From an uncultured Candidatus Saccharibacteria bacterium (GTDB lineage: Bacteria > Patescibacteriota > UBA1384 > XYA2-FULL-43-10 > 1-14-0-10-43-13), in contig CAYILA010000006.1 of assembly GCA_964364265.1 (NCBI GenBank), positions 1 through 61,563 on the forward strand: a DNA stretch of 61,563 bases, read 5' to 3'. Position 1 is the first letter of the stretch. Each line of letters begins with the position of its first letter. The notes below the pieces were generated by a model that had not been told where the DNA came from, ran no database searches, and saw nothing but the letters and a program-made list of their open reading frames with translations. Of this stretch, positions 4,558 through 57,149 are shown piece by piece. The translations under genes were made by a program, and so were the position numbers.

Positions 4558-4707
4558 ATTTCTCCTCTAGTTAATATTTTCGATAATCATACAAAGTATG
4601 AAAAAAGAAGGATTGATTTCCCCTTCTTTTGGTTTCATTAATATTTGTATCATAGCATAATTCCACATTGCAAGGGGTGGGGATAACCAGCCGAAGGCTG
4701 GTAATGT

Positions 4708-4818
4708 TAAATTTCTAATTTCTTATTTCTAAATAATATCAAAAATTAAATCATCAAATAAAAAGACTAGAAACAACTTTCGGTCTTATTAGGATTTAGG
4801 GTTTAGATATTAGGATTT
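4708..4818. repeat. family A palindromic element (AT-rich long hairpin), intergenic copy upstream of uvrA
   Basis: Left arm aaatttctaatttcttatttctaaataatatcaaaaatt, right arm attaggatttagggtttagatattaggattt. Shares these words with 8277-8387, 8614-8725 and 26558-26660. Confidence 0.7.
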
Positions 4819-4915
4819 GTTCTGGATGTGATGGCTCCACTCCTTGATTGGACTTGACAAAGGTGGTAAAATGGTGCGGCTTTGGACCTTATTCAACAAA
4901 TCAAAAAGTCTCAAT

Positions 4916-7822
4916 ATGGATAATATAAAAATAAGCGGCGCCAGAGAACATAATTTAAAGAACATTTCCCTCGAAATTCCAAGGGATAAGTTGGTGGTCA
5001 TCACCGGTTTGTCCGGCTCGGGAAAGTCCTCCCTGGCTTTCGACACCATTTATGCCGAGGGGCAGCGCCGCTATGTCGAATCCCTGTCCTCTTACGCCAG
5101 ACAGTTTTTGGGTCTAATGGAAAAACCGGATGTCGATTACATCGAGGGTTTATCGCCGGCGATATCGATCGACCAAAAATCAGCTTCCCGCAATCCCCGC
5201 TCGACGGTTGGCACCGTGACCGAAATCTATGATTATATGAGAGTCCTCTTCGCCAGAGCGGGGGAAGCCCACTGTCCTAATTGCCGCAAAAAAGTAACCC
5301 GCCAAACTGTCGGCCAGATTGTCGACCAGGTAATTTATTTTGCCAAGAAAACGGAACGGATTGCGGTTCTGGCGCCGGAAGTGGAGGACAAAAAGGGCGG
5401 GCATCAGGACATTTTCCAAAAAATTGCCAAAATGGGTTACTCCCGGGTTCGGCTTGACGGTGTAATTATGGAAATCGAAGAGGCAAGCGCCAAAGAATTG
5501 GATAAGAACAAAAATCACAACATTGAAATTGTGGTTGACCGTCTGATTTTGGAAAAAGAGGGGATCGATGAATCAACTAAAAAACGGCTCTACGATTCAA
5601 TTGAAAAAGCGCTTCTTGCCGGCAAGGGCCGGGTTTTAATCTATAACCTGCCTACCGGTCAGGCAGGTTTCGAAACGGAAAAAACTGAAAACTATTCGGA
5701 ACTGTTTGCCTGTCCGGACTGCAAAATTTCCCTGCCGGAGATTTTGCCCCGTTCCTTTTCTTTCAATTCGCCGCACGGCGCTTGTCCGGTCTGTCAGGGT
5801 TTAGGCGTCCGGCAGGAGATTGAGCCAAGGTTGGTATTACCCAATGCCAGATTGACTATTAACGAGGGGGCGATAAGACCGTGGTCCCGAAGTTCGGCTA
5901 ATCTGGGTTGGTATTTTTCAATCCTCTCGGCGGCTGCCAAAAAACATCAGATCGATATGGATACGCCGATCTCCCAGTTATCGAAAGAGAATCTGAAAAT
6001 AATTCTCTATGGCAGCGGCGAAGAGATTTTAAATGTCCGGGGATATGAAACAAAATATGAGGGCATTATTCCAAATTTGCTCCGCCGATATAAAGAAACG
6101 CAATCGGAGTATATAAAGAAAGAAATCGAAAGATATATGGTCATCCGCCCCTGTCCCTCTTGCGGCGGAAAAAGATTGAAAAAAGAGGTATTGGGAGTTT
6201 TAATTGCCGACAAGAATATTGTCGAGGTTTCCGATTTGACAATTGAAAAATGTTTAGAATTTTTTATCAAACTTCCGAAAAAACTAAACTCGGAACAAAA
6301 CGCTATCGCTGTTCAACTGATTAAAGAAATTAAAGAACGGCTTAAATTTTTAATCGATGTCGGACTTTCTTACCTTACCTTAAATAGAAATGCCGCCACT
6401 TTGGCCGGCGGGGAAGCCCAGCGGATCCGCCTGGCAACCCAGATCGGCTCCGGCCTGATGGGCGTTTTATATATTTTAGATGAGCCCTCAATCGGTCTTC
6501 ATCAGAGAGATAACGCCAGATTAATTGAGACGATCAAAAATCTGCGCGACCTTGGCAACTCGATCATCGTGGTTGAACATGATCAGGAAATGATAATGAA
6601 TTCCGACTGGCTGATTGATATCGGACCGGGCGCCGGCGAACACGGCGGGGAAGTTATCTGTCAGGGAAAACCGGAGGATATCTTGAATTGCGAGGATTCA
6701 ATCACCGCCAAATATCTAAAAGGCGTCGAGGAAATCCCGATTCCGAAATTCAGACGGCCGGGAAACGGCAGCGTTCTTGAAATCGTCGGCGCGACTGAAA
6801 ATAATTTGAAGGGCATTTCGGTAAAAATTCCGCTTAAGACTTTTTCTTGTGTTACCGGTGTTTCCGGATCGGGAAAATCGACTTTAATCAACGATATTTT
6901 GGCCAAGGCCCTTTCAAAAGAGTTCCACCGGGCCAAGACGGAGCCGGGCGAGCACAAAGAAATATTGGGGACAAAAAATCTTGATAAAGTGATCGACATC
7001 GACCAATCGCCGATCGGCAAGTCGCCCCGATCGAATTCGGCAACATATACCGGCATATTTACAACAATCAGAGAACTTTTCGCCCAAACATCGGAGTCTA
7101 AGATGCGCGGATATAAAGCGGGTCGGTTTTCATTTAATGTGAAGGGCGGTCGTTGTGAGAAATGTCGCGGCGAAGGCGTTTTGAAAATCGAGATGCACTT
7201 TTTGCCTGATGTTTATATTACCTGCGAGGAGTGCAAGGGCAAAAGATACAACAAAGAAGCCCTTGAAATCCGATATAAAGGAAAGAATATTGCCGATATT
7301 TTGGAGATGACGGTTGAGGAAGCGGCGTCATTGTTCCAAAATATCCCTCCGATTGTCGAAAAGATGCGGGTTTTGGTTGATGTCGGCTTGGGCTATATTC
7401 GTCTCGGTCAGCCGGCCACGACACTCTCCGGCGGCGAAGCCCAAAGAATAAAACTGGCGACCGAACTTTCGCACCGCAGCACCGGTAAAACTTTATATAT
7501 TTTAGACGAACCGACGACCGGACTTCATTTTGAAGACATCCGCCGGCTTTTGGGGGTTCTGGCGGCGCTGGTGGATAAGGGCAATACCGTTTTGGTAATC
7601 GAGCACAATCTTGATGTGATCAAATCGGCTGATTACCTTATCGATCTGGGACCGGACGGTGGCGATAAGGGGGGAGAGGTACTGGCTACCGGCACGCCGG
7701 AGGAGGTAGCTAAAGTTAAAAAGTCATATACGGGACAGTATTTAAATAAATTACTCAATGGTTCAATTGTTAAATTGTCCAATCCCAAAAACGGTAAACG
7801 GTATACGGCCTGCCTGCGGTAG
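4916..7822 (+). CDS. uvrA: excinuclease ABC subunit A
   Basis: ORF track 4844..7822. Likely start [17 protein letters not shown] at 4916. Two ABC ATPase modules ([24 protein letters not shown]), LSGGEAQR signatures and zinc-finger Cys pairs. Confidence 0.95.
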
Positions 7823-8014: not shown

Positions 8015-8152
8015 CCTACGAAAGTACAAATTCATCGAAAATACGAAACTACGAATAGATTTCATTAAATAATTCGTAATTTAGAACTTTAGTAATTTCG
8101 TTTGATTCGTCCGCCTCGGCTCGTGCCGACGCGAGACGGGTAATTTGGTAGG
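8015..8152. repeat. family B palindromic element inserted at the apex of RNase P helix P3
   Basis: Runs cctacgaaagtac...taatttggtagg and carries the 30-nt module ccgcctcggctcgtgccgacgcgagacggg (8111-8140). It is flanked by ccgtgcttcgcac / gtgcgcagcgcgg, which can form the P3 base stem. Confidence 0.8.
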
Positions 8153-8263
8153 TAGAGTGCGCAGCGCGGTGGAGGAAAGTCCGAGCACTATAGAGCAGGG
8201 CGCTTGTGAAAACAAGAGGGCCGTAAGGTCCTAGAACAGCGCAACAGAAAATAAACCGCCAAA

Positions 8264-8400
8264 CCGTGCGAAGCACGGAAATCCGAAATCCTAATTTCTA
8301 AATCCGAAACAATATCAAAATTCAAGTATTTAAATGTTTGAAAATTGGAATTTGTTTAGGATTTAGGGTTTCGATATTAGAATTTCCGCGCTCCGCGCGG
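8264..8400. repeat. family A palindromic element at the RNase P P12 position
   Basis: Lies between AAACCGCC and GGTAAGGGTGAAA. Layout: ccgtgc-gaa-gcacgg, then the long AT-rich hairpin ggaaatccgaaatcc...gatattagaatttcc, then ccgcgc-tc-... gcgcgg. Confidence 0.8.
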
Positions 8401-8600
8401 CGGTAAGGGTGAAATCGTGTCCCGATGTTACAATCGGGATCCCAATATCGCAAGATCGTCGGGAAGGTAAGAGCTCACGCGTTCGTATGGCGACATACGT
8501 CTGTGGCAAGCCTCGTTTAGTGCAAGTGAAGTGGACTAGATATATCAACTTTTGCTCGAAGGGTATATTTGGTCTTCACGCGTAGATAGATTGTCATCGG

Positions 8601-8739
8601 CCGTGCACAGCACGGAAATCCAAAATCCTAATTTCTAAATCCGAAATAATATCAAAATTCAAATAATAAAATATTTGAAAAATAGAATTTGTTTAGGGTT
8701 TAGGATTTCGATATTAGAATTTCCGCGCTATGCGCGGCC
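8601..8739. repeat. family A palindromic element between the P2 3' strand and the P4 3' strand of RNase P RNA
   Basis: Same three-part architecture as 8264-8400 (ccgtgc-aca-gcacgg, long hairpin, ccgcgc-tat-gcgcgg). It sits right before CCTACAGAACTCGGC. Confidence 0.8.
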
Positions 8740-8840
8740 TACAGAACTCGGCTTATTGATTACTTTGAAGCTGTTTGACCAAATAAATATTTTGTGTTAG
8801 ATTGAGAGCAATCTTTCATAAATTGCAAGAAGGAGTATCG

Positions 8841-9404
8841 ATAGCAAATAATAAGTTTTATCGGGTTAATGAGCGAATTCGATTTTCGCCCATTGTTGTT
8901 ATTGACGAAGAAGGTGAAAATTTAGGCGAAATGTCGACTTTTGAGGCTAGAAAATTGGCCGAGAATGCCGGTCTTGACCTTGTCGAGATTAATCCGACCA
9001 ACCGTCCGCCGATTTGCAAGATCATGGATTACGGAAAATTCAAATACGACCAGGCCAAGAAAGATAAAGAATCCCGTTCCAAACAGAAGGAAACGGAGTT
9101 GAAGGAAATCCGATTGACTCACAAGATTTCCGACCACGACATTGACTACAAGGCGAAACAGGCCAGAGAATTCTTTAACCACGGCAACAAGGTTAAGGTC
9201 TCGATGCGGCTTCGAGGACGGGAAAACGCCTTCGTCAACCAAGCATTCGCCGTTTTTGAAAAATTTGCCGAGAAGTCGGGTATCTATTATGAAAGTCGGC
9301 CGGTCAAAAGCGGAAATTCAATAATTGGAAATTTCGGGAAGTTAAGAGAGAAAGAAAAATCAGATGAAGTTAAAATCCCACAAAGCGACAGTCAAGAGAA
9401 TTAA
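8841..9404 (+). CDS. infC: translation initiation factor IF-3 (probable non-AUG ATA start)
   Basis: ORF track 8802..9404 (TTG). GAAGGAG (8829-8835) lies 5 nt before the in-frame ATA 8841. Typical IF-3 sequence (INERIR-like RVNERIRFSPIVVIDEEGENLG, MDYGKFKY). Confidence 0.85.
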   Translation: MANNKFYRVNERIRFSPIVVIDEEGENLGEMSTFEARKLAENAGLDLVEINPTNRPPICKIMDYGKFKYDQAKKDKESRSKQKETELKEIRLTHKISDHDIDYKAKQAREFFNHGNKVKVSMRLRGRENAFVNQAFAVFEKFAEKSGIYYESRPVKSGNSIIGNFGKLREKEKSDEVKIPQSDSQEN

Positions 9405-9546
9405 AAGAACCGGTTCGGGAAAGTTGGTTCACGTTAAAGCGGCCAAAAGCCATCTTTTGACACACAAAAGCGATCCGACCAAAGTTTTGATTGAGGTCAA
9501 GAAACCTGACAGAGCGGGTGTTAAAAGAATGGCACCATACCTATAA
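9364..9546 (+). CDS. rpmI: 50S ribosomal protein L35
   Basis: ORF track: MKLKSHKATVKRIKRTGSGKL. Overlaps the infC 3' end by 41 nt. Confidence 0.85.
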   Translation: MKLKSHKATVKRIKRTGSGKLVHVKAAKSHLLTHKSDPTKVLIEVKKPDRAGVKRMAPYL

Positions 9547-9556
9547 ATAACCAAAT

Positions 9557-9649
9557 CCTTACGAAACTACGGATTGATCGAAAATACGAAACTACTAATC
9601 AATAAATATTCGTACTCTAGTAATTTCGTTCGATTCGTAATTTAGTAGG
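9557..9649. repeat. family B palindromic element (rpmI-rplT spacer)
   Basis: Runs ccttacgaaactacgg...cgaaaatacgaaactac...gtaatttcgtt...taatttagtagg. Same TACGAAA/TTTCGTA word hairpin as 8015-8152 and 57013-57149. Confidence 0.7.
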
Positions 9650-9664
9650 AAGTTAGGATATTCA

Positions 9665-10006
9665 ATGAGAGTAAAGCGCGGAACGGTCAGACATGCCAAG
9701 CACAAGAAAATCATCAAATTAGCCAAGGGCTATGTCGGACGCAAAAAATCGGTATTCAAATTAGCCAAGCAGGCGGTCTATAAAGCCGGACAGCACGCTT
9801 TTCGCGACCGACGCAATAAAAAGCGAACCTTCCGGGCACTCTGGATTATCAAGATTAATGCCGGTGTCAGACAATTCGGCATGAGCTACTCGACATTTAT
9901 GAAGAAATTGACTGATGCCAAAATTGAATTGGATCGAAAGATGCTTTCAGACCTGGCCGAAAATGAGCCGAAGGCCTTTGAAGCAGTCGTCGACAGGGTC
10001 AAGTAA
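9665..10006 (+). CDS. rplT: 50S ribosomal protein L20
   Basis: ORF track: [23 protein letters not shown]. Confidence 0.95.
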
Positions 10007-10026
10007 TTATATTAACAGATCTAAAA

Positions 10027-10365
10027 ATGTTACACACAATGAATATTGGTTCTGTTCCGTTTGATAAAATTATTGACGGTAGCAAAACAATTGAAAGCCG
10101 ACTTTATGATGAAAAGAGACAAAAGATAGAGATTGGTGACGAAATTGAATTTCATGAGAATGGGTTGAAGCGCCGTACTGTCCGAACCAAAGTTATATCA
10201 TTACATAATTTTGACACTTTTGCCGATATGGTTAATGAAATGGGTTCATCTAAATTTGGTTGGATTGATGAAATTCAAATGCTCAACGAAATCTACAAAT
10301 ATTATACCAAAGATGATGAGAAAAAGTACTCCGTTTTGGGAATCGAAATAAAAAAAATAAGTTAG
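10027..10365 (+). CDS. ASCH domain protein (PUA-like fold)
   Basis: ORF track. F..I..G.KTIE.R......I..GD.I.F pattern (FDKIIDGSKTIESRLYDEKRQKIEIGDEIEF). AT-rich like the backbone. Confidence 0.65.
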   Translation: MLHTMNIGSVPFDKIIDGSKTIESRLYDEKRQKIEIGDEIEFHENGLKRRTVRTKVISLHNFDTFADMVNEMGSSKFGWIDEIQMLNEIYKYYTKDDEKKYSVLGIEIKKIS

Positions 10366-10489
10366 AAATTCTCAAAGAAAACACTATACAAAATAAGTAT
10401 ATTGTGTTATAAATATTATGACTGGACTCAGCTGCTTAGGACTGCAAGCATAGGGTTTGTTTTTCAGCAGCGATTAAGGAGGTAATCCA

Positions 10490-11821
10490 GTGGAAGACCT
10501 GTCGATCAGAGAGGCTCTAGAGAGAGACCGTAATTTTGTGGTTTGGTGCATGAAGGAAGCGTTATCTCCCTACTACGGTGGGGATCATGGCGCTCACGCT
10601 GAGAGAATATTCTCGACGCACATTTCTGGTGGTGTGGACCAAATCGGACATTTTTCATTCGAACAGAAGATGTTCATCGGAGAGATAAACGAAACACCGG
10701 TGGGGATGATTCATGTAGTAGGGAAGCGTCAAGGGACATATAAAATCAGTCCCCTGATAGTCTCACCTGAATACAGGAATCGTGGAGGTATAGGTAGTCG
10801 ACTACTAAAGTCGGCGGAAGAGTATGCACAGCAACGGGGGGCGCGACAGATGTACTGCACCGTGGCTTTGTCGAATGAACAAGCACTTGGTTTTTTTATC
10901 CGGAAAGGATATGTCAGAGCCGGGAGCTCAGATAGTCACTATAAAGCCGGAGTTCGAGAGGTCATGCTCTACAAACTGTTCGTGGATCCTTCTCAAGAGG
11001 AACGCTTGGATGCACCGAACATCTCAGTTGTTCCGATGTCTGAACGACACGAATCGCAGGCCAGGGAGCTCATTCTATCTACTTTACCCGATGTCTTTCG
11101 GGGGGTGGACGACGTATGGGTAACCGCTTTGTTCGAGGGGTACAAACGGAGCAGTTGTCGAGACATCAACACCAAATACAAGCTGGTATGGGTTGCTGTT
11201 GATAGAAATGACAATGTTTTGGGTGTAACGGGTGCAACGCCGAAAAAGGGCGAACCGATAAAGGTGATGCCCCTGGTGGCGTCTTCGCAGAACGCCTTCA
11301 TCGCGCTTCTACGAGACATACCTCATACGCTTGCACAGTTTGGCCACAAGCTCTATGTCCATATTGTTCCGACGGTCGAGGAGACAATTGTTCTCCAAAG
11401 GCTAGGTTGGGATTTGGATGCAGCAATGCCGGCCGCGTATCACCCAAAGGCTGTCACTCAGCAGTGGAGCTTTAGTACCGGAGGAAATCTGATGAGAAAC
11501 TTGAGAGTGAAGCAACACTTTCTCGCCGAAATAGCTGAAGGAAAAAAAACGCTTGAAGTTCGAGTTGGTTACGATAATATCAAAACCATCCGAACGGGCG
11601 AACGGGTTCTCTTGGCTTCTAATTCTAGCCAGCTTGTCGTACGGATCAGGGGCGTGCGGCAGTACCCGACATTTGATGCAATGTTGAATGTCGAGGAAGC
11701 TGCCAAAATCGTACCCGGCAAGAACGACCTCCAGGTTCTTTGGCTTCTTCGAGAGATCTACGGCGAGGACCGAGAGAGACTTGGTGTGTATGTTCTGGAC
11801 ATTGAGGTTGAACAAAGATAA
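10490..11821 (+). CDS. GNAT acetyltransferase - second GNAT-like domain - ASCH domain fusion protein
   Basis: GTG start with AAGGAGG 7 nt upstream. Acetyl-CoA motif IVSPEYRNRGGIGSRLL. The C-terminal ~105 aa (FLAEIAEGKKTLEVRVGYDNIKTIRTGERVLL...) parallel the upstream ASCH protein. GC-rich. Confidence 0.7.
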   Translation: MEDLSIREALERDRNFVVWCMKEALSPYYGGDHGAHAERIFSTHISGGVDQIGHFSFEQKMFIGEINETPVGMIHVVGKRQGTYKISPLIVSPEYRNRGGIGSRLLKSAEEYAQQRGARQMYCTVALSNEQALGFFIRKGYVRAGSSDSHYKAGVREVMLYKLFVDPSQEERLDAPNISVVPMSERHESQARELILSTLPDVFRGVDDVWVTALFEGYKRSSCRDINTKYKLVWVAVDRNDNVLGVTGATPKKGEPIKVMPLVASSQNAFIALLRDIPHTLAQFGHKLYVHIVPTVEETIVLQRLGWDLDAAMPAAYHPKAVTQQWSFSTGGNLMRNLRVKQHFLAEIAEGKKTLEVRVGYDNIKTIRTGERVLLASNSSQLVVRIRGVRQYPTFDAMLNVEEAAKIVPGKNDLQVLWLLREIYGEDRERLGVYVLDIEVEQR

Positions 11822-20891: not shown

Positions 20892-22061
20892 ATGAAACAG
20901 AAGATATTGGTGACCGGCGGTGCCGGTTATATAGGCAGTATTACGGTAAAAGAATTGTTGGATAACGGTTTCGATGTGGTGGTTTTGGATTCGCTGGAAA
21001 ACGGTCACAGGGAAGCGGTTGACCGGCGGGCGAGACTGGAGGTAGTTAATCTATCTGACAAAAAGGGCGTAAATGAAGTATTTAGGAAACATAAATTTGA
21101 TGCTGTGATTGACTTTGCCGCCTATCTTTCGGTGGGGGAGTCGATGGAGAACCCTAAAAAGTATCTGGATAATAATGTCGGCAATTTTATTAAACTTCTT
21201 GATGTTATGGTTGAAAATGATTGCCGCTACATTATCAAATCTTCCACCGCTGCGACTTACGGCAATCCCCCGTCCGACGATTATTTTCCCCTTAAAGAGG
21301 AGAGCCAGAAAGAGTACCGACTCGAAAAATCGGCTCTTCTCTCCGGAAAGTGGGACGGGGCGGATCTGAATGGCGAAGAATTTTTCAAAAAAGCTTTAGA
21401 TTATTATGGGAATATTGCAAACGGCCGAACCGAACTAATATTAAGCGATGAAGATATTAAAGTGCTTCGGACACCGACCTCAATTTACGGTCTCTCCAAA
21501 TTGATTGACGAAATTTTGCTTTCAAAGTATAATCAAAAATCGGATTTGAAGTATGTGGCTCTTCGTTACTTTAATGTTTCAGGTGCGACTCTGGATGGTT
21601 TGATGGGTGAAGATAAGCCGAATCCGATCACACTGATGACGGTCTGTTACTGGTCGCTTTTAGGAAAGTATCCCCCGGTTCCAATTTTTGGGACGGATTA
21701 TCCGACGCCGGACGGGACCGGAATCAGGGACTACATCCATCCGGTTGATATTGCGACAGGGCACCTAAAGGCGCTCCAGTATTTGCAAAAAACCAATCAA
21801 AGCGAGGTCATTAATCTTGGAACCGGCAAAGGCAACACTGTTTTTGAAGTGATAAAAACGGTCGAAAAGGCGAGCGGAAAAAAAGTAAATTACAAAATAG
21901 TCCCCCGCCGTCGCGGCGATCCGGTCAAGTCCTGGGCAGATCCGGCCAAGGCCAAAGAATTGCTTGGTTGGGAGGCGAAATACAGTTTGGATGAAATGGC
22001 GGAGTCCGCCTGGAAATGGCATTCGACCCATCCGGACGGTTACCAAATCAAAAACGGATAA
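20892..22061 (+). CDS. galE: UDP-glucose 4-epimerase / NAD-dependent epimerase (with internal insertion)
   Basis: ORF track. VTGGAGYIGS Rossmann motif, YGLSK (YxxxK). About 60 aa longer than the GalE sizes I recall. Confidence 0.8.
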   Translation: MKQKILVTGGAGYIGSITVKELLDNGFDVVVLDSLENGHREAVDRRARLEVVNLSDKKGVNEVFRKHKFDAVIDFAAYLSVGESMENPKKYLDNNVGNFIKLLDVMVENDCRYIIKSSTAATYGNPPSDDYFPLKEESQKEYRLEKSALLSGKWDGADLNGEEFFKKALDYYGNIANGRTELILSDEDIKVLRTPTSIYGLSKLIDEILLSKYNQKSDLKYVALRYFNVSGATLDGLMGEDKPNPITLMTVCYWSLLGKYPPVPIFGTDYPTPDGTGIRDYIHPVDIATGHLKALQYLQKTNQSEVINLGTGKGNTVFEVIKTVEKASGKKVNYKIVPRRRGDPVKSWADPAKAKELLGWEAKYSLDEMAESAWKWHSTHPDGYQIKNG

Positions 22062-22129
22062 CTAATCATAAGGATAACTAATAACGAATATCTGTTATTC
22101 GTCATCCTAACCATCCGTTATCCGTATTT
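22054..22129. repeat. family C palindromic element (GGATAAC/GTTATCC words)
   Basis: Runs acggataactaatcataaggataactaataacgaatatctgttattcgtcatcc...gttatccgtattt. Supplies the galE stop codon. Related copies at 28183-28272 and 61524-61563. Confidence 0.7.
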
Positions 22130-22141
22130 ATTCGAGGATTT

Positions 22142-24423: not shown

Positions 24424-24482
24424 TTTTAAGATTACAATTAGCATAATTGCGCTTGAAGCATTCATTTTTCTTTCGACCACCT

Positions 24483-24512
24483 CCGCCTCGGCTTCGCCAT
24501 AGGCGAGACGGG
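24483..24512. repeat. variant of the 30-nt GC module (ccgcctcggcttcgccataggcgagacggg)
   Basis: Same arms as 8111-8140 and 57108-57137. Followed by the hairpin ggtcgcc-ac-ggcgacc. Confidence 0.7.
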
Positions 24513-24598: not shown

Positions 24599-25309
24599 AT
24601 GAATAAAATTAGATTTCACATTCTGACACTGTTTCCGGAGATGTTTGAAAGCGTTTTTGCCTCAAGTATCCTTTCCCGTGCCCAGAAAAAGGGAATTATG
24701 GAGATAAAATATTATAATTTACGCGATTTTGCCGCCGACAAGCACAAAACTGTAGACGACACGCCGTATGGCGGCGGTCCGGGGATGGTACTGAAAATTG
24801 ATGTTATGGACAAAGCCATAACATCAATAAAATCCGAAATCCGAAATCCGAAATCCGAAAAATCAAAAGTCATATTGATGACGCCGCAGGGGAAGAGGTT
24901 TGATCAGAAAAAAGCGGCCGAATTATCAAATTTGGAGGATATCATCTTAATCTGTGGCCACTACGAAGGATTTGACGAAAGAATCAGAGAGCACTTGGTT
25001 GATGAGGAAATTTCGATTGGTGATTTTGTACTTTCGGGTGGAGAAATTCCGGCTATGGCCGTCGTGGACGCCGTAGCCCGGCTCGTACCGGGAGTGCTGG
25101 GCAAGGATGAGTCCTCGAATGAGGAGAGTTTTTCATTGACCGATGATGACGGCAAGATTTTACTGGAATACCCAATCTATACCCGTCCGGTCGAGTACAA
25201 GGGTTGGAAAGTGCCGGAGGTGCTCCAAAACGGAAATCATGCCGAGATTAAAAAATGGCGTCTAGAAGAAGCCAAGAATAGAACTAAAGATAAACGAACT
25301 GACAGGTAA
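24599..25309 (+). CDS. trmD: tRNA (guanine37-N1)-methyltransferase
   Basis: ORF track: YGGGPGMVLK, ICGHYEGFDERI, SIGDFVLSGGE. Confidence 0.9.
   Translation: MNKIRFHILTLFPEMFESVFASSILSRAQKKGIMEIKYYNLRDFAADKHKTVDDTPYGGGPGMVLKIDVMDKAITSIKSEIRNPKSEKSKVILMTPQGKRFDQKKAAELSNLEDIILICGHYEGFDERIREHLVDEEISIGDFVLSGGEIPAMAVVDAVARLVPGVLGKDESSNEESFSLTDDDGKILLEYPIYTRPVEYKGWKVPEVLQNGNHAEIKKWRLEEAKNRTKDKRTDR
24831..24858. repeat. (AATCCGA)x4 heptamer repeat, in frame inside trmD
   Basis: Read directly. Encodes part of IKSEIRNPKSEKSK in a variable TrmD loop. It is the same word as the left arm of family A elements. Confidence 0.9.
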
Positions 25310-25327: not shown

Positions 25328-27418
25328 ATGAGCAATTTTGTACTGAAATCAAAATTTGAACCCAAGGGGGATCAGCCGGAAGCGATCGAGAGATTATCCG
25401 CCAATCTTGAGAGTGGAGTTAAGGATCAGGTCCTTTGGGGGGTAACCGGATCGGGCAAGACCTTCACCATGGCTAATGTGGTTCAAAATATCCAAAAACC
25501 GACTTTGGTAATCGCCCACAACAAAACTCTGGCCGCCCAGTTGGCCGATGAATTCCGCCAGTATTTTCCAAACAACGCGGTCCATTATTTCGTTTCCTAC
25601 TACGATTATTATCAACCGGAGGCCTATATCGCCTCGACCGATACATACATTGAGAAGGACTCCTCAATCAACGATGAGATTGACCGCCTTCGCCACGCCG
25701 CCACCCACGCTCTTCTTACCAGAAAAGATGTTTTAATCGTCGCCTCGGTTTCCTGTATTTATGGCATCGGTTCGCCGGAGTTCTACCAGTCAGAAAATGT
25801 AATATTAAAAGTTGGCGAAGATATTAAACGCGATCAATTGTTAAAATCTCTGACCAATCAACAATATCAACGAAACGATTTGGAGTTGCGGCGCGGGACT
25901 TTTCGGCTGAAGGGTGACACTCTGGAGATTTTACCGGCTTACGCCGAAAATTATTTTAGAATTGAATTTTTTGGTGACAACATCGAAAAGATTACAGAAA
26001 TGGCCTGGCCGGACAACAATGTCTTGAAAAATTATCAAGAGATTGAGATCTATCCGGCAAAACATTTTATTACCCCGGAGCCAATCCTAAAACTTGCAAT
26101 ATCGGAGATCAGAAAAGATCTCGAGATTAGACTAAAAGAATTGAAATCAGAAAATAAGCTTTTAGAATACCAACGCTTGGAACAGCGAACCAATTACGAT
26201 TTGGAGATAATGGAGCAGACCGGTACCTGCTCCGGAATTGAGAACTATTCAAGATATTTTGACCAAAGATCTCCGGGCGAACCGCCGACCACACTTTTGG
26301 ACTACTTTCCCCATTCGACAAGCTCAGGGCAGGCTGATTTCCTGTTGTTCATCGACGAATCCCACATGACTGTGCCCCAGATAAGGGGAATGCATGCCGG
26401 TGACCATTCGCGGAAGAACTCTTTAATCGAAAACGGTTTTCGCCTTCCATCGGCTTTTGATAACCGGCCGCTCCAGTACGAAGAGTTCCAAGATAAGATC
26501 GGTCGAACAATATTTGTGTCGGCGACACCGGGGGAGTACGAGCTCCAAAAGAGCTCAAGAAATCCGAAATCCGAAATCCGAAATCCTAAAGAAATTAAAA
26601 ATTCGAATTTTGAAAATTCAAAAATTGTTTCGGATTTAGATATTAGAGATTCGAATTTCCACGCCAGCGTGGTAAAGCAGTTCATCCGGCCAACCGGATT
26701 GATTGATCCGGAAATCGAGGTCCGAAAAACCGCTGGCCAGATTAAAGATTTGATTACCGAAATAGACAGCCGAATATTGAAGAAACAACGAGTTTTAGTA
26801 ACAACCCTGACCAAACGGATGGCTGAGGAACTAACCGAATATTTAGCAGAGAGAAAAATCAAAGTTGCCTACATTCACTCCGATGTCGAAACGCTGGAGC
26901 GAAGCGAGATACTTCATTCTTTGCGGTTGGGAGAATATGATGTGCTGGTCGGCATAAACTTGCTTCGGGAAGGTTTGGATCTGCCGGAAGTATCGATGGT
27001 AGCGATACTGGATGCCGACAAGGAAGGGTTTTTGCGGAGCAAGACATCTTTAGTTCAGACAATCGGGCGGGCGGCACGCCACTCGGAGGGCAAGGTTATA
27101 ATGTATGCCGACCGGATAACCGATTCGATGAAAGCAGCCATATCTGAAACCGAAAATCGGCGCAAACTGCAGGAACGCTATAACACGGAACACGGCATCA
27201 TTCCAACAACAATTCAAAAATCGGTAAAGCCAAAGGAGATAAAGGAAGAAGAGGAGCTGAAAAAGATCAATAAAGAATTCAAAGTTCTACCAAAGATCGA
27301 GAAAAAACGGGTGATTAGAGATTTGGAACAGTTGATGGAAGAGGCGGCCAAAAATTTGGAATTCGAACGGGCGGCCGAACTCCGAGATCAGATCATCAAG
27401 TTGGAATCGCTGATTTGA
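25328..27418 (+). CDS. uvrB: excinuclease ABC subunit B (with in-frame repeat insertion)
   Basis: ORF track: GVTGSGKTFTMA, FVSYYDYYQPEAY, DESH, C-terminal UVR motif (FERAAELRDQI). Confidence 0.95.
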   Translation: MSNFVLKSKFEPKGDQPEAIERLSANLESGVKDQVLWGVTGSGKTFTMANVVQNIQKPTLVIAHNKTLAAQLADEFRQYFPNNAVHYFVSYYDYYQPEAYIASTDTYIEKDSSINDEIDRLRHAATHALLTRKDVLIVASVSCIYGIGSPEFYQSENVILKVGEDIKRDQLLKSLTNQQYQRNDLELRRGTFRLKGDTLEILPAYAENYFRIEFFGDNIEKITEMAWPDNNVLKNYQEIEIYPAKHFITPEPILKLAISEIRKDLEIRLKELKSENKLLEYQRLEQRTNYDLEIMEQTGTCSGIENYSRYFDQRSPGEPPTTLLDYFPHSTSSGQADFLLFIDESHMTVPQIRGMHAGDHSRKNSLIENGFRLPSAFDNRPLQYEEFQDKIGRTIFVSATPGEYELQKSSRNPKSEIRNPKEIKNSNFENSKIVSDLDIRDSNFHASVVKQFIRPTGLIDPEIEVRKTAGQIKDLITEIDSRILKKQRVLVTTLTKRMAEELTEYLAERKIKVAYIHSDVETLERSEILHSLRLGEYDVLVGINLLREGLDLPEVSMVAILDADKEGFLRSKTSLVQTIGRAARHSEGKVIMYADRITDSMKAAISETENRRKLQERYNTEHGIIPTTIQKSVKPKEIKEEEELKKINKEFKVLPKIEKKRVIRDLEQLMEEAAKNLEFERAAELRDQIIKLESLI
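26557..26674. repeat. family A palindromic element inserted in frame in uvrB
   Basis: Runs agaaatccgaaatccgaaatccgaaatcc...gtttcggatttagatattagagattcgaatttcc, then ccacgc-ca-gcgtgg. Translated as SRNPKSEIRNPKEIKNSNFENSKIVSDLDIRDSNFHAS, between YELQKS and VVKQFIRPTGL. Confidence 0.85.
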
Positions 27419-27489: not shown

Positions 27490-28002
27490 ATGAAACAAAG
27501 CGTCGGAATATTTATTGTTATCGTTGTTGCGATCTTGGCGATTGGCGGCGGGCTGATCTATTACAACAAAAGTAAAAATTCGGCCGATTCAAACCGAGTT
27601 GCCGACCAAAACGGAGATGTTAAGGGAGCGAGCGATAGTGGTGAAAGCGCTGATTATAAGGTTAAACTAGCTAAATTTTTAAGCCAGAAGGGGATGGTCA
27701 TGTACGGCGCTTATTGGTGCGTTCACTGCAAGGGACAAAAGGAACTGTTCGGCGACGCCTTCCAATATGTTGACTATGTCGAGTGTGATGCCGCAGGCGA
27801 AAATGGAAATCCGGAGGAATGCAAAGCAAAAGGGGTAACCGGATATCCGACCTGGATATATCAGGGCAAGGAGTATGAAGGGCTTCTATCGCTTTCAAAA
27901 TTAGCCGGTATTGTCGGATTCTCCGATAGCGGTGCTTCCAATGCCGATTCATCCACAAATAGCACCGATTCGACAACGAGCACTGGGGATAACCAGCCGT
28001 AA
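27490..28002 (+). CDS. membrane-anchored thioredoxin-fold protein (CxxC; VKOR-partner-like Trx domain)
   Basis: ORF track. N-terminal TM helix. YGAYWCVHCKGQKELFG resembles the Trx-like domain fused to bacterial VKOR homologues (recall). Confidence 0.6.
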   Translation: MKQSVGIFIVIVVAILAIGGGLIYYNKSKNSADSNRVADQNGDVKGASDSGESADYKVKLAKFLSQKGMVMYGAYWCVHCKGQKELFGDAFQYVDYVECDAAGENGNPEECKAKGVTGYPTWIYQGKEYEGLLSLSKLAGIVGFSDSGASNADSSTNSTDSTTSTGDNQP

Positions 28003-28011
28003 ACTACCGAT

Positions 28012-28039
28012 AAATCCTAAATCCTAAATCCTAAATCCT
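28012..28039. repeat. (AAATCCT)x4 heptamer repeat
   Basis: Read directly. Begins 10 nt after the stop codon of the Trx-fold gene. Confidence 0.9.
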
Positions 28040-28131
28040 AAACTGACATTAAATAAATATTGTCCAAGACGGGATATTTAACAAGGTGATTCTGGGAGAT
28101 CATTGAATAGCAAGATTATGTCTCCGTACGC

Positions 28132-28161: not shown

Positions 28162-28182
28162 GGTGAATGTAATATCAAAAAT

Positions 28183-28272
28183 GGATAACGGATTATAAGG
28201 ATAACTGATGACAAATATTGGTTATTCGTTATCCAAACAATTCGTTATCCAAACAATTCGTTATCCGTATTT
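28183..28272. repeat. family C palindromic element with 2.7 tandem copies of a 16-mer
   Basis: Runs ggataacggattataaggataactgatgacaaatattggttattcgttatcc.... attcgttatccaaaca is repeated at 28224, 28240 and 28256 (partial). Ends gttatccgtattt as in 22117-22129. Confidence 0.75.
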
Positions 28273-28303
28273 AATTGAGGAATTTAGAGAGGAGGTGAAT
28301 TAA

Positions 28304-57012: not shown

Positions 57013-57149
57013 CCTACGAAAGTACGAATATAACCTGCCTACCGGCAGGCAGGCGAAAATACTAAAATACCAATCAATTCGTAATTTCGTACTTTAGAAA
57101 AATTCGTCCGCCTCGGCTCGTGCCGACGCGAGACGGGTAATTTTGTAGG
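57013..57149. repeat. family B palindromic element (rpoB-rpoC spacer) with nested modules
   Basis: Runs cctacgaaagtacgaa...ttcgtactttag...ttttgtagg. Encloses cctgcct-accggc-aggcagg (57034-57053) and the 30-nt module 57108-57137, which is identical to 8111-8140. Confidence 0.8.

Follow-up and report, generated by a model that had tools for sequence, protein, structure and literature searches.

A palindromic repeat lies in frame within uvrB of a Patescibacteria bacterium and shares its arms with PF05635 cassettes

Rickettsia palindromic elements (RPEs) were reportedly described by Ogata et al. in 2000. For these elements, we know of no partner open reading frame (ORF) and of no spread across phyla. 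RPEs are found in frame in many genes, and also in RNA genes, with a conserved frame (PMC10969869). [quoted passage not shown] The intervening sequences (IVS) of 23S rRNA are excised by RNase III; they are viewed as selfish, and their mobility has been suspected for a long time. Examples with an S23p/PF05635 ORF are known in Leptospira and Coxiella (PMC4990558). In bacteria of the Candidate Phyla Radiation (CPR), insertions in rRNA genes are mostly introns of groups I and II with homing endonucleases (PMC11270868). CPR RNase P RNAs with extended helices and scores below the Rfam threshold have been reported, with no explanation given (PMC8172020). Here we describe a palindromic element that is inserted in frame in the uvrB gene of a 61,563-nucleotide stretch of DNA (contig CAYILA010000006.1, referred to as the window), and the hairpin family of which it is a member.

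The uvrB gene (25328..27418, plus strand) was taken from the ORF list and encodes an intact protein of 696 residues that matches the UvrBs of the PDB in phmmer searches (E 2e-242). The protein contains all Pfam UvrB domains and keeps 238/238 invariant columns of a 106-sequence alignment. Its nearest relatives are from Patescibacteria, with 71-72% identity by BLASTP and 73-74% in the multiple alignment, and judged by these closest UvrBs the host is a Patescibacteria (CPR) bacterium. When the protein is compared with all PDB chains by phmmer, residues 3-409 and 447-693 align to residues 4-404 and 406-655 of B. caldotenax UvrB. Because the match to solved UvrBs splits at 409/447, residues 410-446 are extra. 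The insert is encoded by 111 nt, or 37 codons (26555..26665, plus strand; SRNPKSEIRNPKEIKNSNFENSKIVSDLDIRDSNFHA), placed by the alignment gap to the solved structures, and has a GC content of 0.30, compared to 0.45 for the uvrB gene. An earlier note on this DNA, made from the sequence alone, had reported a palindromic repeat in frame within uvrB at 26557-26674. We confirm this observation: a repeat copy lies in frame within an intact gene. The protein sequence quoted there is an exact match to the ORF, and the span is correct to a few bases, the nhmmer envelope of the element being 26553..26672 (plus strand; 99.4 bits, with a seed alignment that contains the uvrB copy itself).

The left arm of the uvrB copy, as read from the sequence, consists of four tandem GAAATCC heptamers (26559..26586, plus strand). 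This unit is stop-free in all six frames, with GAAATCC translated as EIRNPKS and GGATTTC as GFRISDF. The centre is AT-rich and holds an inner inverted repeat (26599..26658, plus strand), for which a repeat search gives arms at 26599-26622 and 26635-26658 with 75% complementarity. The right end is formed by the GC hairpin CCACGC-CA-GCGTGG (26659..26672, plus strand), the 3' arm of which enters the conserved VV codons. The equivalent position is occupied by CCGCGC-TCC/TAT-GCGCGG in two copies within the RNase P RNA gene (rnpB) of the window and by CCACCG-TTGTG-CGGTGG in a copy from another CPR contig (locus L117), both described below. The right-terminal stem therefore changes on both of its sides. 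The earlier note considered both ends common to the uvrB and rnpB copies; as a correction, the left GC hairpin of the rnpB copies is absent from the uvrB copy. One candidate for it, GAGCTC-CAAAA-GAGCTC, was rejected as conserved uvrB coding sequence (YELQKS). The RNA of the insert alone folds at -18.6 kcal/mol (z -2.5), and with flanks at -25 kcal/mol (z -1.9).

The window holds four copies of the element in 61.5 kb. All are imperfect palindromes of 111-138 nt without a transposase. Two of them interrupt the RNase P RNA. Copy 1 is located at the P12 tip (8264..8401, plus strand) and has a minimum free energy of -50.8 kcal/mol (z -6.4) and a profile score of 112.9 bits. Copy 2 replaces P18 (8601..8738, plus strand), is 90% identical to copy 1 and scores 105.6 bits. 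The RNase P RNA family RF00010 aligns to 8154-8770 with 90.5 bits (E 6e-28), which is under the gathering score of 100 because of the two ~137-nt inserts at the P12 tip and the P18 site. The claim that two family copies reside within the RNase P RNA is borne out by this match. Standard annotation would miss the rnpB gene of the window, since its score is sub-gathering. The fourth copy is intergenic (4690..4822, plus strand), with E 9e-9 for a profile built from other phyla and 67.4 bits for the family profile; 22 nt separate its end from the TTG start codon of uvrA (4844-7822), which follows it. A copy of the element is thus found in uvrB and next to uvrA, two of the three genes of excision repair.

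The similarity of the uvrB insert to the other copies in the window, which the earlier note had proposed from the letters, is significant by shuffle, blastn and profile statistics. Local alignment of the insert to the first rnpB copy scores 49, compared to 11.5 ± 2.2 in shuffles (z ~17), and the global identity is 68-69%. In blastn, the insert matches the rnpB copies with 72-75% identity over 97-123 nt (E 6e-10). A profile made exclusively from other phyla matches the uvrB insert on both strands, with E 1.9e-4 for the minus and 0.022 for the plus strand, calculated for the 61.5-kb window. The sequence GAAATCCGAAATCC is found 8 times at up to 1 mismatch, with 0.11 expected.

The same element is found in frame in further CPR proteins. 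An exhaustive phmmer search with the 40-residue insert against 1.84 billion representative proteins identified two. The first is a THUMP-type methyltransferase (P0121, locus L117), in which the insert is 86% identical and located right before motif I. The second is an RNase HII (P0124, locus L118), in which it is 70% identical and part of the loop before DSKKL. Over 103 nt of DNA, the methyltransferase copy, from a Hainich groundwater contig (ENA ERZ1292623), has 95% identity to that of uvrB (E 7e-41), and the RNase HII copy is 82% identical to the uvrB copy. Two more copies are present in L117, one intergenic and one from which the methyltransferase takes its final residues and stop codon. 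Variant-specific DNA pattern scans gave one hit each, both in frame, in a metallophosphoesterase-like protein of a Saccharibacteria metagenome-assembled genome (MAG; L122) and in TsaD (L123). In a frame-blind scan with the arm, one of 24 complete short copies (L081-L116) belongs to the reading frame of an unambiguous protein gene, that of a UvrD/PcrA-type helicase from a Saccharibacteria MAG (L103). Locus L106 has two tandem copies in open frames of 176-189 codons. All six in-frame cases, UvrB and the five others, share the orientation, the frame and a related peptide core. This core, NSNFENSK(I/L)VSD(L/F)DI, is identical in 4/6 hosts, and is diverged but recognisable in L122 and L103.

A second extra segment of UvrB, HSTSSGQA at residues 329-336 (~26312-26335), adds 7 residues at a position where Bacillus and the CPR consensus have DYFP(D/K)DFL. 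Its DNA, GCTCAGGGCAGGC, recurs in the loop of the L122 element copy, which hints at another tiny repeat.

The insertion site in UvrB is a variable linker. We measured the segment between YExxKS and VVxQFIRPTGL in 119 CPR-type UvrBs: it has 0-3 residues in 9 proteins, 4-11 in 9, 12-16 in 72 and at least 17, with a maximum of 63, in 29. The typical CPR loop at this site has ~13-15 residues. The nearest UvrBs (P0002, P0003 and P0005, 71-73% identical) carry unrelated segments of 31-34 residues at the insert position. In part, this is what the earlier note had named as counter-evidence, and the length of the uvrB segment is therefore ordinary for the clade; the origin of the uvrB DNA in the repeat family is still secure. 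Several of the long CPR UvrB linkers translate other, GC-rich palindromic repeat families. The DNA of one such insert (P0102) folds at -60.9 kcal/mol (z -4.7), and another (P0008) holds the hairpin CCCGC-GAAG-GCGGG. The UvrB linker is thus a hypervariable site at which different lineages have acquired different repeats.

Our AlphaFold model of the window UvrB, built with 106 homologues, has a mean pLDDT of 85.5 and a pTM of 0.83. The sole segment of at least 3 residues under pLDDT 50 comprises residues 415-441, between the helix 403-410 and the strand 448-450. The model, a check that the earlier note had proposed, thus places the insert in a low-confidence loop. Established knowledge of UvrB structures locates this segment where the two RecA-like domains of UvrB (domain 1a and domain 3) meet.

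GC-rich palindromic families of other kinds are also translated in frame in CPR proteins. They include VIPTEAEGSL... in DnaE (L117 5368-9096), CHSERNEKKPRNPSASSG... in the L117 methyltransferase (9242-10747), VILNISEESS...SAEPQDDN in TsaD (L123 5941-7458), and VIPAKAGIQ... and PLRGEARWG...TPPLTPPQRGG in several UvrBs (L120, L121).

The arms of the element are not confined to CPR bacteria. A scan with a 30-nt degenerate pattern of the right arm matched 36 DNA stretches, with hosts among Planctomycetota, several CPR groups, Chloroflexota, Bacteroidota, Fibrobacteria, Verrucomicrobia, Syntrophorhabdaceae, Gammaproteobacteria and others; the same pattern gave 0 hits in viral contigs. The earlier note had placed the element in a lineage unrelated to Rickettsia, which holds; the element is not peculiar to the host lineage, given arms in many phyla. 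Four of the 36 matches abut the start codon of a 118-121-residue ORF matching PF05635 (E 6e-16 to 8e-10), the 23S rRNA intervening sequence protein, a four-helix bundle. The ORFs begin 10 nt inside the arm, and a complementary arm follows the stop codon, resulting in a cassette of ~520 nt. A scan for relatives of the arm-flanked PF05635 protein confirmed at least 537. The best 80 of these (L124-L203) were used; they are 62-88% identical (one locus 53%) and come from more than 15 phyla, with many CPR groups.

An nhmmer profile of the element, built from seven short CPR copies, has matches adjoining the ORF at 77 of the 80 best PF05635 loci and zero hits in 593 kb of unrelated control loci. At the 73 loci where the ORF could be delimited, the arm is found upstream in 56, downstream in 61 and on both sides in 48. 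Arms from the same locus pair at a mean of -37.3 kcal/mol, compared to -31.4 kcal/mol for arms from different loci (better in 52/70, Wilcoxon p 2e-4) and -21.3 kcal/mol for shuffles, which means that the arms have been kept complementary. Of the 123 family loci, not one is in 16S or 23S rDNA, as assessed by blastn against the E. coli 16S and 23S genes. In two Planctomycetota MAGs (L100, L116), the cassette is located upstream of near-identical genes (MSKAHVYKRDH...), suggesting the same position between genes.

While the association of the arms with PF05635 is observed, the descent and movement of the short copies can only be proposed. The full-length form of the family would be the ~520-nt cassette, with complementary arms around the gene for a four-helix-bundle protein of 118-121 residues. 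The short copies may derive from this cassette and move like it. In CPR genomes, they have probably inserted, and repeatedly so, into protein loops that permit it and into helices at the periphery of RNase P RNA. In its widest form, this proposal takes the uvrB insert as one case of a general process: a mobile PF05635 cassette crossed phyla and spawned ORF-less derivatives, and a stop-free sublineage of these colonises loops of essential proteins (UvrB, TsaD, RNase HII, UvrD and a methyltransferase) and RNase P helices in the streamlined genomes of CPR bacteria. We advance this widest form tentatively, as a plausible scenario somewhat short of a probable one.

In uvrB, the host frame is the open one. 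The insert has 0, 1 and 4 stops in the three forward frames, and the stop-free frame is that of the host gene, as the earlier note had read it. In shuffled inserts, the frame in use stays open with a probability of 0.038. The non-coding copies (two in rnpB, the intergenic one of the window and the intergenic one of L117) have 1-6 stops in every forward frame, and the in-frame copies, including that of uvrB, are open in the host frame only. Since uvrA is also present in the window, the repair pathway is not decaying.

We therefore favor a model in which an AT-rich, heptamer-built hairpin element landed in, or replaced, the linker between the RecA-like domains of UvrB. The insert would be transcribed and translated with uvrB, resulting in a hydrophilic, disordered surface loop of 37 residues. 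Tolerated by UvrB, the copy would persist as a neutral or nearly neutral passenger. Within a needed gene, only copies with a length that is a multiple of three and without stops in the host frame would survive, which accounts for the open frame of the insert. We consider it probable that the uvrB insert is an ORF-less, MITE-like copy that is translated. The alternative of the earlier note, an in-frame palindromic copy either translated or removed, analogous to RPEs in an unrelated lineage, is supported in general, and the sequence evidence favors translation as the most likely fate. Neutrality is the presumed state of the insert.

Several points weigh against this model and its extension to the cassette. 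The in-frame copies retain full hairpin potential. As the best UvrB relative is ~72% identical, the insertion cannot be dated, nor an empty site shown. At the hypervariable linker, the closest relatives carry segments that are similar in length but unrelated; instead of adding 37 residues, the copy may have taken the place of an older loop. Four of the five additional in-frame cases were retrieved with queries favoring this variant or frame; the fifth, L103, comes from the frame-blind scan and is a single uncurated ORF. An assembly gap lies 29 nt away from the L117 copy. PF05635 is not known as a transposase, no target-site duplication was seen, and no family locus is in rDNA. The link between the short copies and the cassette is drawn from the similarity of their arms.

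It is possible that the retained hairpin affects the mRNA, for example through RNase III cleavage, because the in-frame copies (z -1.65 to -5.3) fold as well as the non-coding ones (z -1.6 to -4.7). Co-option could take this form, with the mRNA hairpin tuning the expression or stability of uvrB, or the loop could have gained a role in the protein. The significant hairpin potential of the in-frame copies, the peptide core shared by the six hosts and the 95% identity of the uvrB and methyltransferase copies agree with such a role. However, a conserved peptide is expected where DNA copies descend from a recent common ancestor, AlphaFold predicts a disordered loop, and the unrelated sequences at the same site in relatives argue against a sequence-specific role in UvrB. 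We consider co-option unlikely. The hairpin of the uvrB copy is weaker than those of the rnpB copies. The idea that coding copies eroded their hairpin to escape RNase III was rejected, since the other in-frame copies fold like non-coding ones. A TAG-to-TCG change in TTGTTTAGG was likewise rejected as a mark of coding copies, since TCG is common in PF05635-flanking arms (45 vs 56).

Removal of the insert would produce a mature UvrB without it, through RNA processing and re-joining, intein-like splicing or ribosomal bypassing. In favor of removal, the RNA of the family folds into long hairpins, RNase P RNA has to tolerate its copies or have them trimmed, and similar hairpins in 23S rRNA IVS and Correia elements are cut by RNase III (PMC4990558, PMC10969869). 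Yet an RNase III cut without ligation would destroy the mRNA. To our knowledge, there is no bacterial system that re-joins cuts of the RNase III type. Among the intron and ribozyme families of Rfam, none has a match to the copies of the element (those of RNase P RNA and related loci) or to the remainder of the window. At gathering thresholds, Rfam has no match anywhere in the window and finds only tRNAs in ten related loci; the rnpB copies of the element give just weak, sub-gathering matches to microRNA-precursor hairpins, in addition to RNase P RNA itself. The insert, with 37 residues or 111 nt, is far smaller than intein splicing blocks of ~130 residues or more, and intein terminal motifs are absent from its sequence. 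Bypassing does not need an in-phase open frame, yet 6/6 in-frame cases are open and the non-coding copies are closed. Removal thus appears quite improbable, and translation remains the fate that we favor.

A further alternative is that the gene is a pseudogene, or that the insert arose falsely when the metagenome was assembled across a repeat. Assemblers can indeed be confused by repeats, and the L117 copy adjoins a run of N. In the window, however, uvrB continues without a break on either side of the insert, with order and phase correct, all invariant UvrB residues are kept, and in-frame copies of the same kind occur in independent assemblies from other samples. We give this explanation very little credence. 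Finally, the segment could be a native, fast-evolving linker of low complexity that resembles the repeat by composition alone, as might be expected from the hypervariable site, the unrelated 31-34-residue segments of the closest relatives and a heptamer run in trmD that is repeat-like without a change in loop length, but this is extremely unlikely in view of the alignment statistics (z ~17 over shuffles of the same composition), the 95% identity over 103 nt to a copy in an unrelated gene (E 7e-41), the match of an independent profile and the fall in GC content from 0.45 to 0.30.

The trmD run consists of four in-frame GAAATCC heptamers (24829-24860), encoding KSEIRNPKSE. The corresponding stretch of the closest TrmD (L119) is a similar IKGDVRTPDYE, and because this orthologue has the same length there, the run was rejected as a third insertion; conversion, slippage or chance may be its source. 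An AT-rich stretch in uvrA (6175-6354) was also rejected as an element and is ordinary UvrA sequence. A (TAAATCC)4 run at 28011-28042 follows the stop codon of ORF 27490-28002 at a distance of ~10 nt. This run and the copy at 4690 are both closely preceded by the 15-mer GGGGATAACCAGCCG (27986-28000; 4683-4697), which may be an extended element end that gives an ORF its C-terminus.

Two other repeat families are present in the window. A second palindromic family, made of GGATAAC units, has intergenic copies at 22047-22141 and 28174-28284 (83-84% identical) and is also found in L117 (20176-20253, 87.5%). A third repeat, with the GC hairpin TCCGCCTCGGCTCGTGCCGACGCGAGACGGG, occurs at 8081-8152, 57078-57149 and 24482-24512. 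Its copies closely precede rnpB, rpoC and trmD, the last with 77% identity; the repeat could be an element common to promoter regions or leaders, or one more mobile hairpin.

The weight of the finding lies mainly in the recurrence of the element in essential CPR genes and in the link to the unexplained IVS/PF05635 elements. Cases of palindromes that colonise housekeeping genes in frame have been documented mostly in Rickettsia. CPR bacteria have small genomes and are known for peculiar insertions in proteins and RNAs, for part of which the present case offers one explanation. In practice, such inserts put RNase P RNA under Rfam thresholds and add low-complexity loops to marker proteins. The UvrB domain linker constitutes a natural map of insertion tolerance in a helicase. 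Conserved arms, an ORF in many phyla and short derivatives at new sites are the pattern expected of a mobile element, and the PF05635 link makes the nature of rRNA intervening sequences and S23p genes testable. If spread from the cassette is real, it would represent a second, independent RPE-like system, as well as the first concrete evidence that IVS-type elements are mobile and seed new protein segments. The earlier note is refined in three respects: a hypervariable linker as the site, a hairpin family that crosses phyla, and translation as the probable fate of the insert.

We found no description of the repeat family, of the association between its arms and PF05635 or of in-frame repeats in CPR proteins in the literature searched. 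As in other CPR structural RNAs, lineage-specific insertions drop the rnpB of the window under the Rfam threshold (PMC11270868; PMC8172020). These two papers do not tie such features to a palindromic repeat family or to protein insertions, and a term search of PMC11270868 returned no mention of palindromes, hairpins or RNase P.

Like MITEs, the element has terminal inverted repeats, occurs in multiple copies and forms hairpins. It differs from them in that a target-site duplication is not seen, nor is a transposase-bearing IS relative, and the protein encoded by its larger relative is a four-helix bundle. Inspection by eye, without a formal search, showed no direct repeat in the flanks of the uvrB, L117, L118 and L123 copies; between the arms, no transposase was seen either, and the longer relatives encode only the PF05635 protein. 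The resemblance to 23S rRNA IVS extends to terminal inverted repeats that form a long stem (-50.8 kcal/mol, z -6.4 for an rnpB copy), to the PF05635 gene enclosed by this stem in the arm-sharing relatives and to insertion at the tip of a helix in a structured RNA. Unlike IVS, the copies of the window are ORF-less and reside in rnpB, uvrB and intergenic DNA instead of helix 25 or 45 of 23S rRNA.

The element can be called RPE-like by analogy. Its host belongs to Patescibacteria, and membership among the RPEs (RPE-1 to RPE-10) is not claimed. Both are palindromic repeats of ~100-150 bp that are present in multiple copies without a transposase. Both occur in frame in unrelated housekeeping genes and in RNA genes, with one conserved frame, a recognisable peptide and sites tolerated by the fold. 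Unlike RPEs, the element described here is hosted by Patescibacteria rather than Rickettsia, has a very AT-rich, heptamer-based sequence, and shares its arms with a PF05635 cassette found in many phyla.

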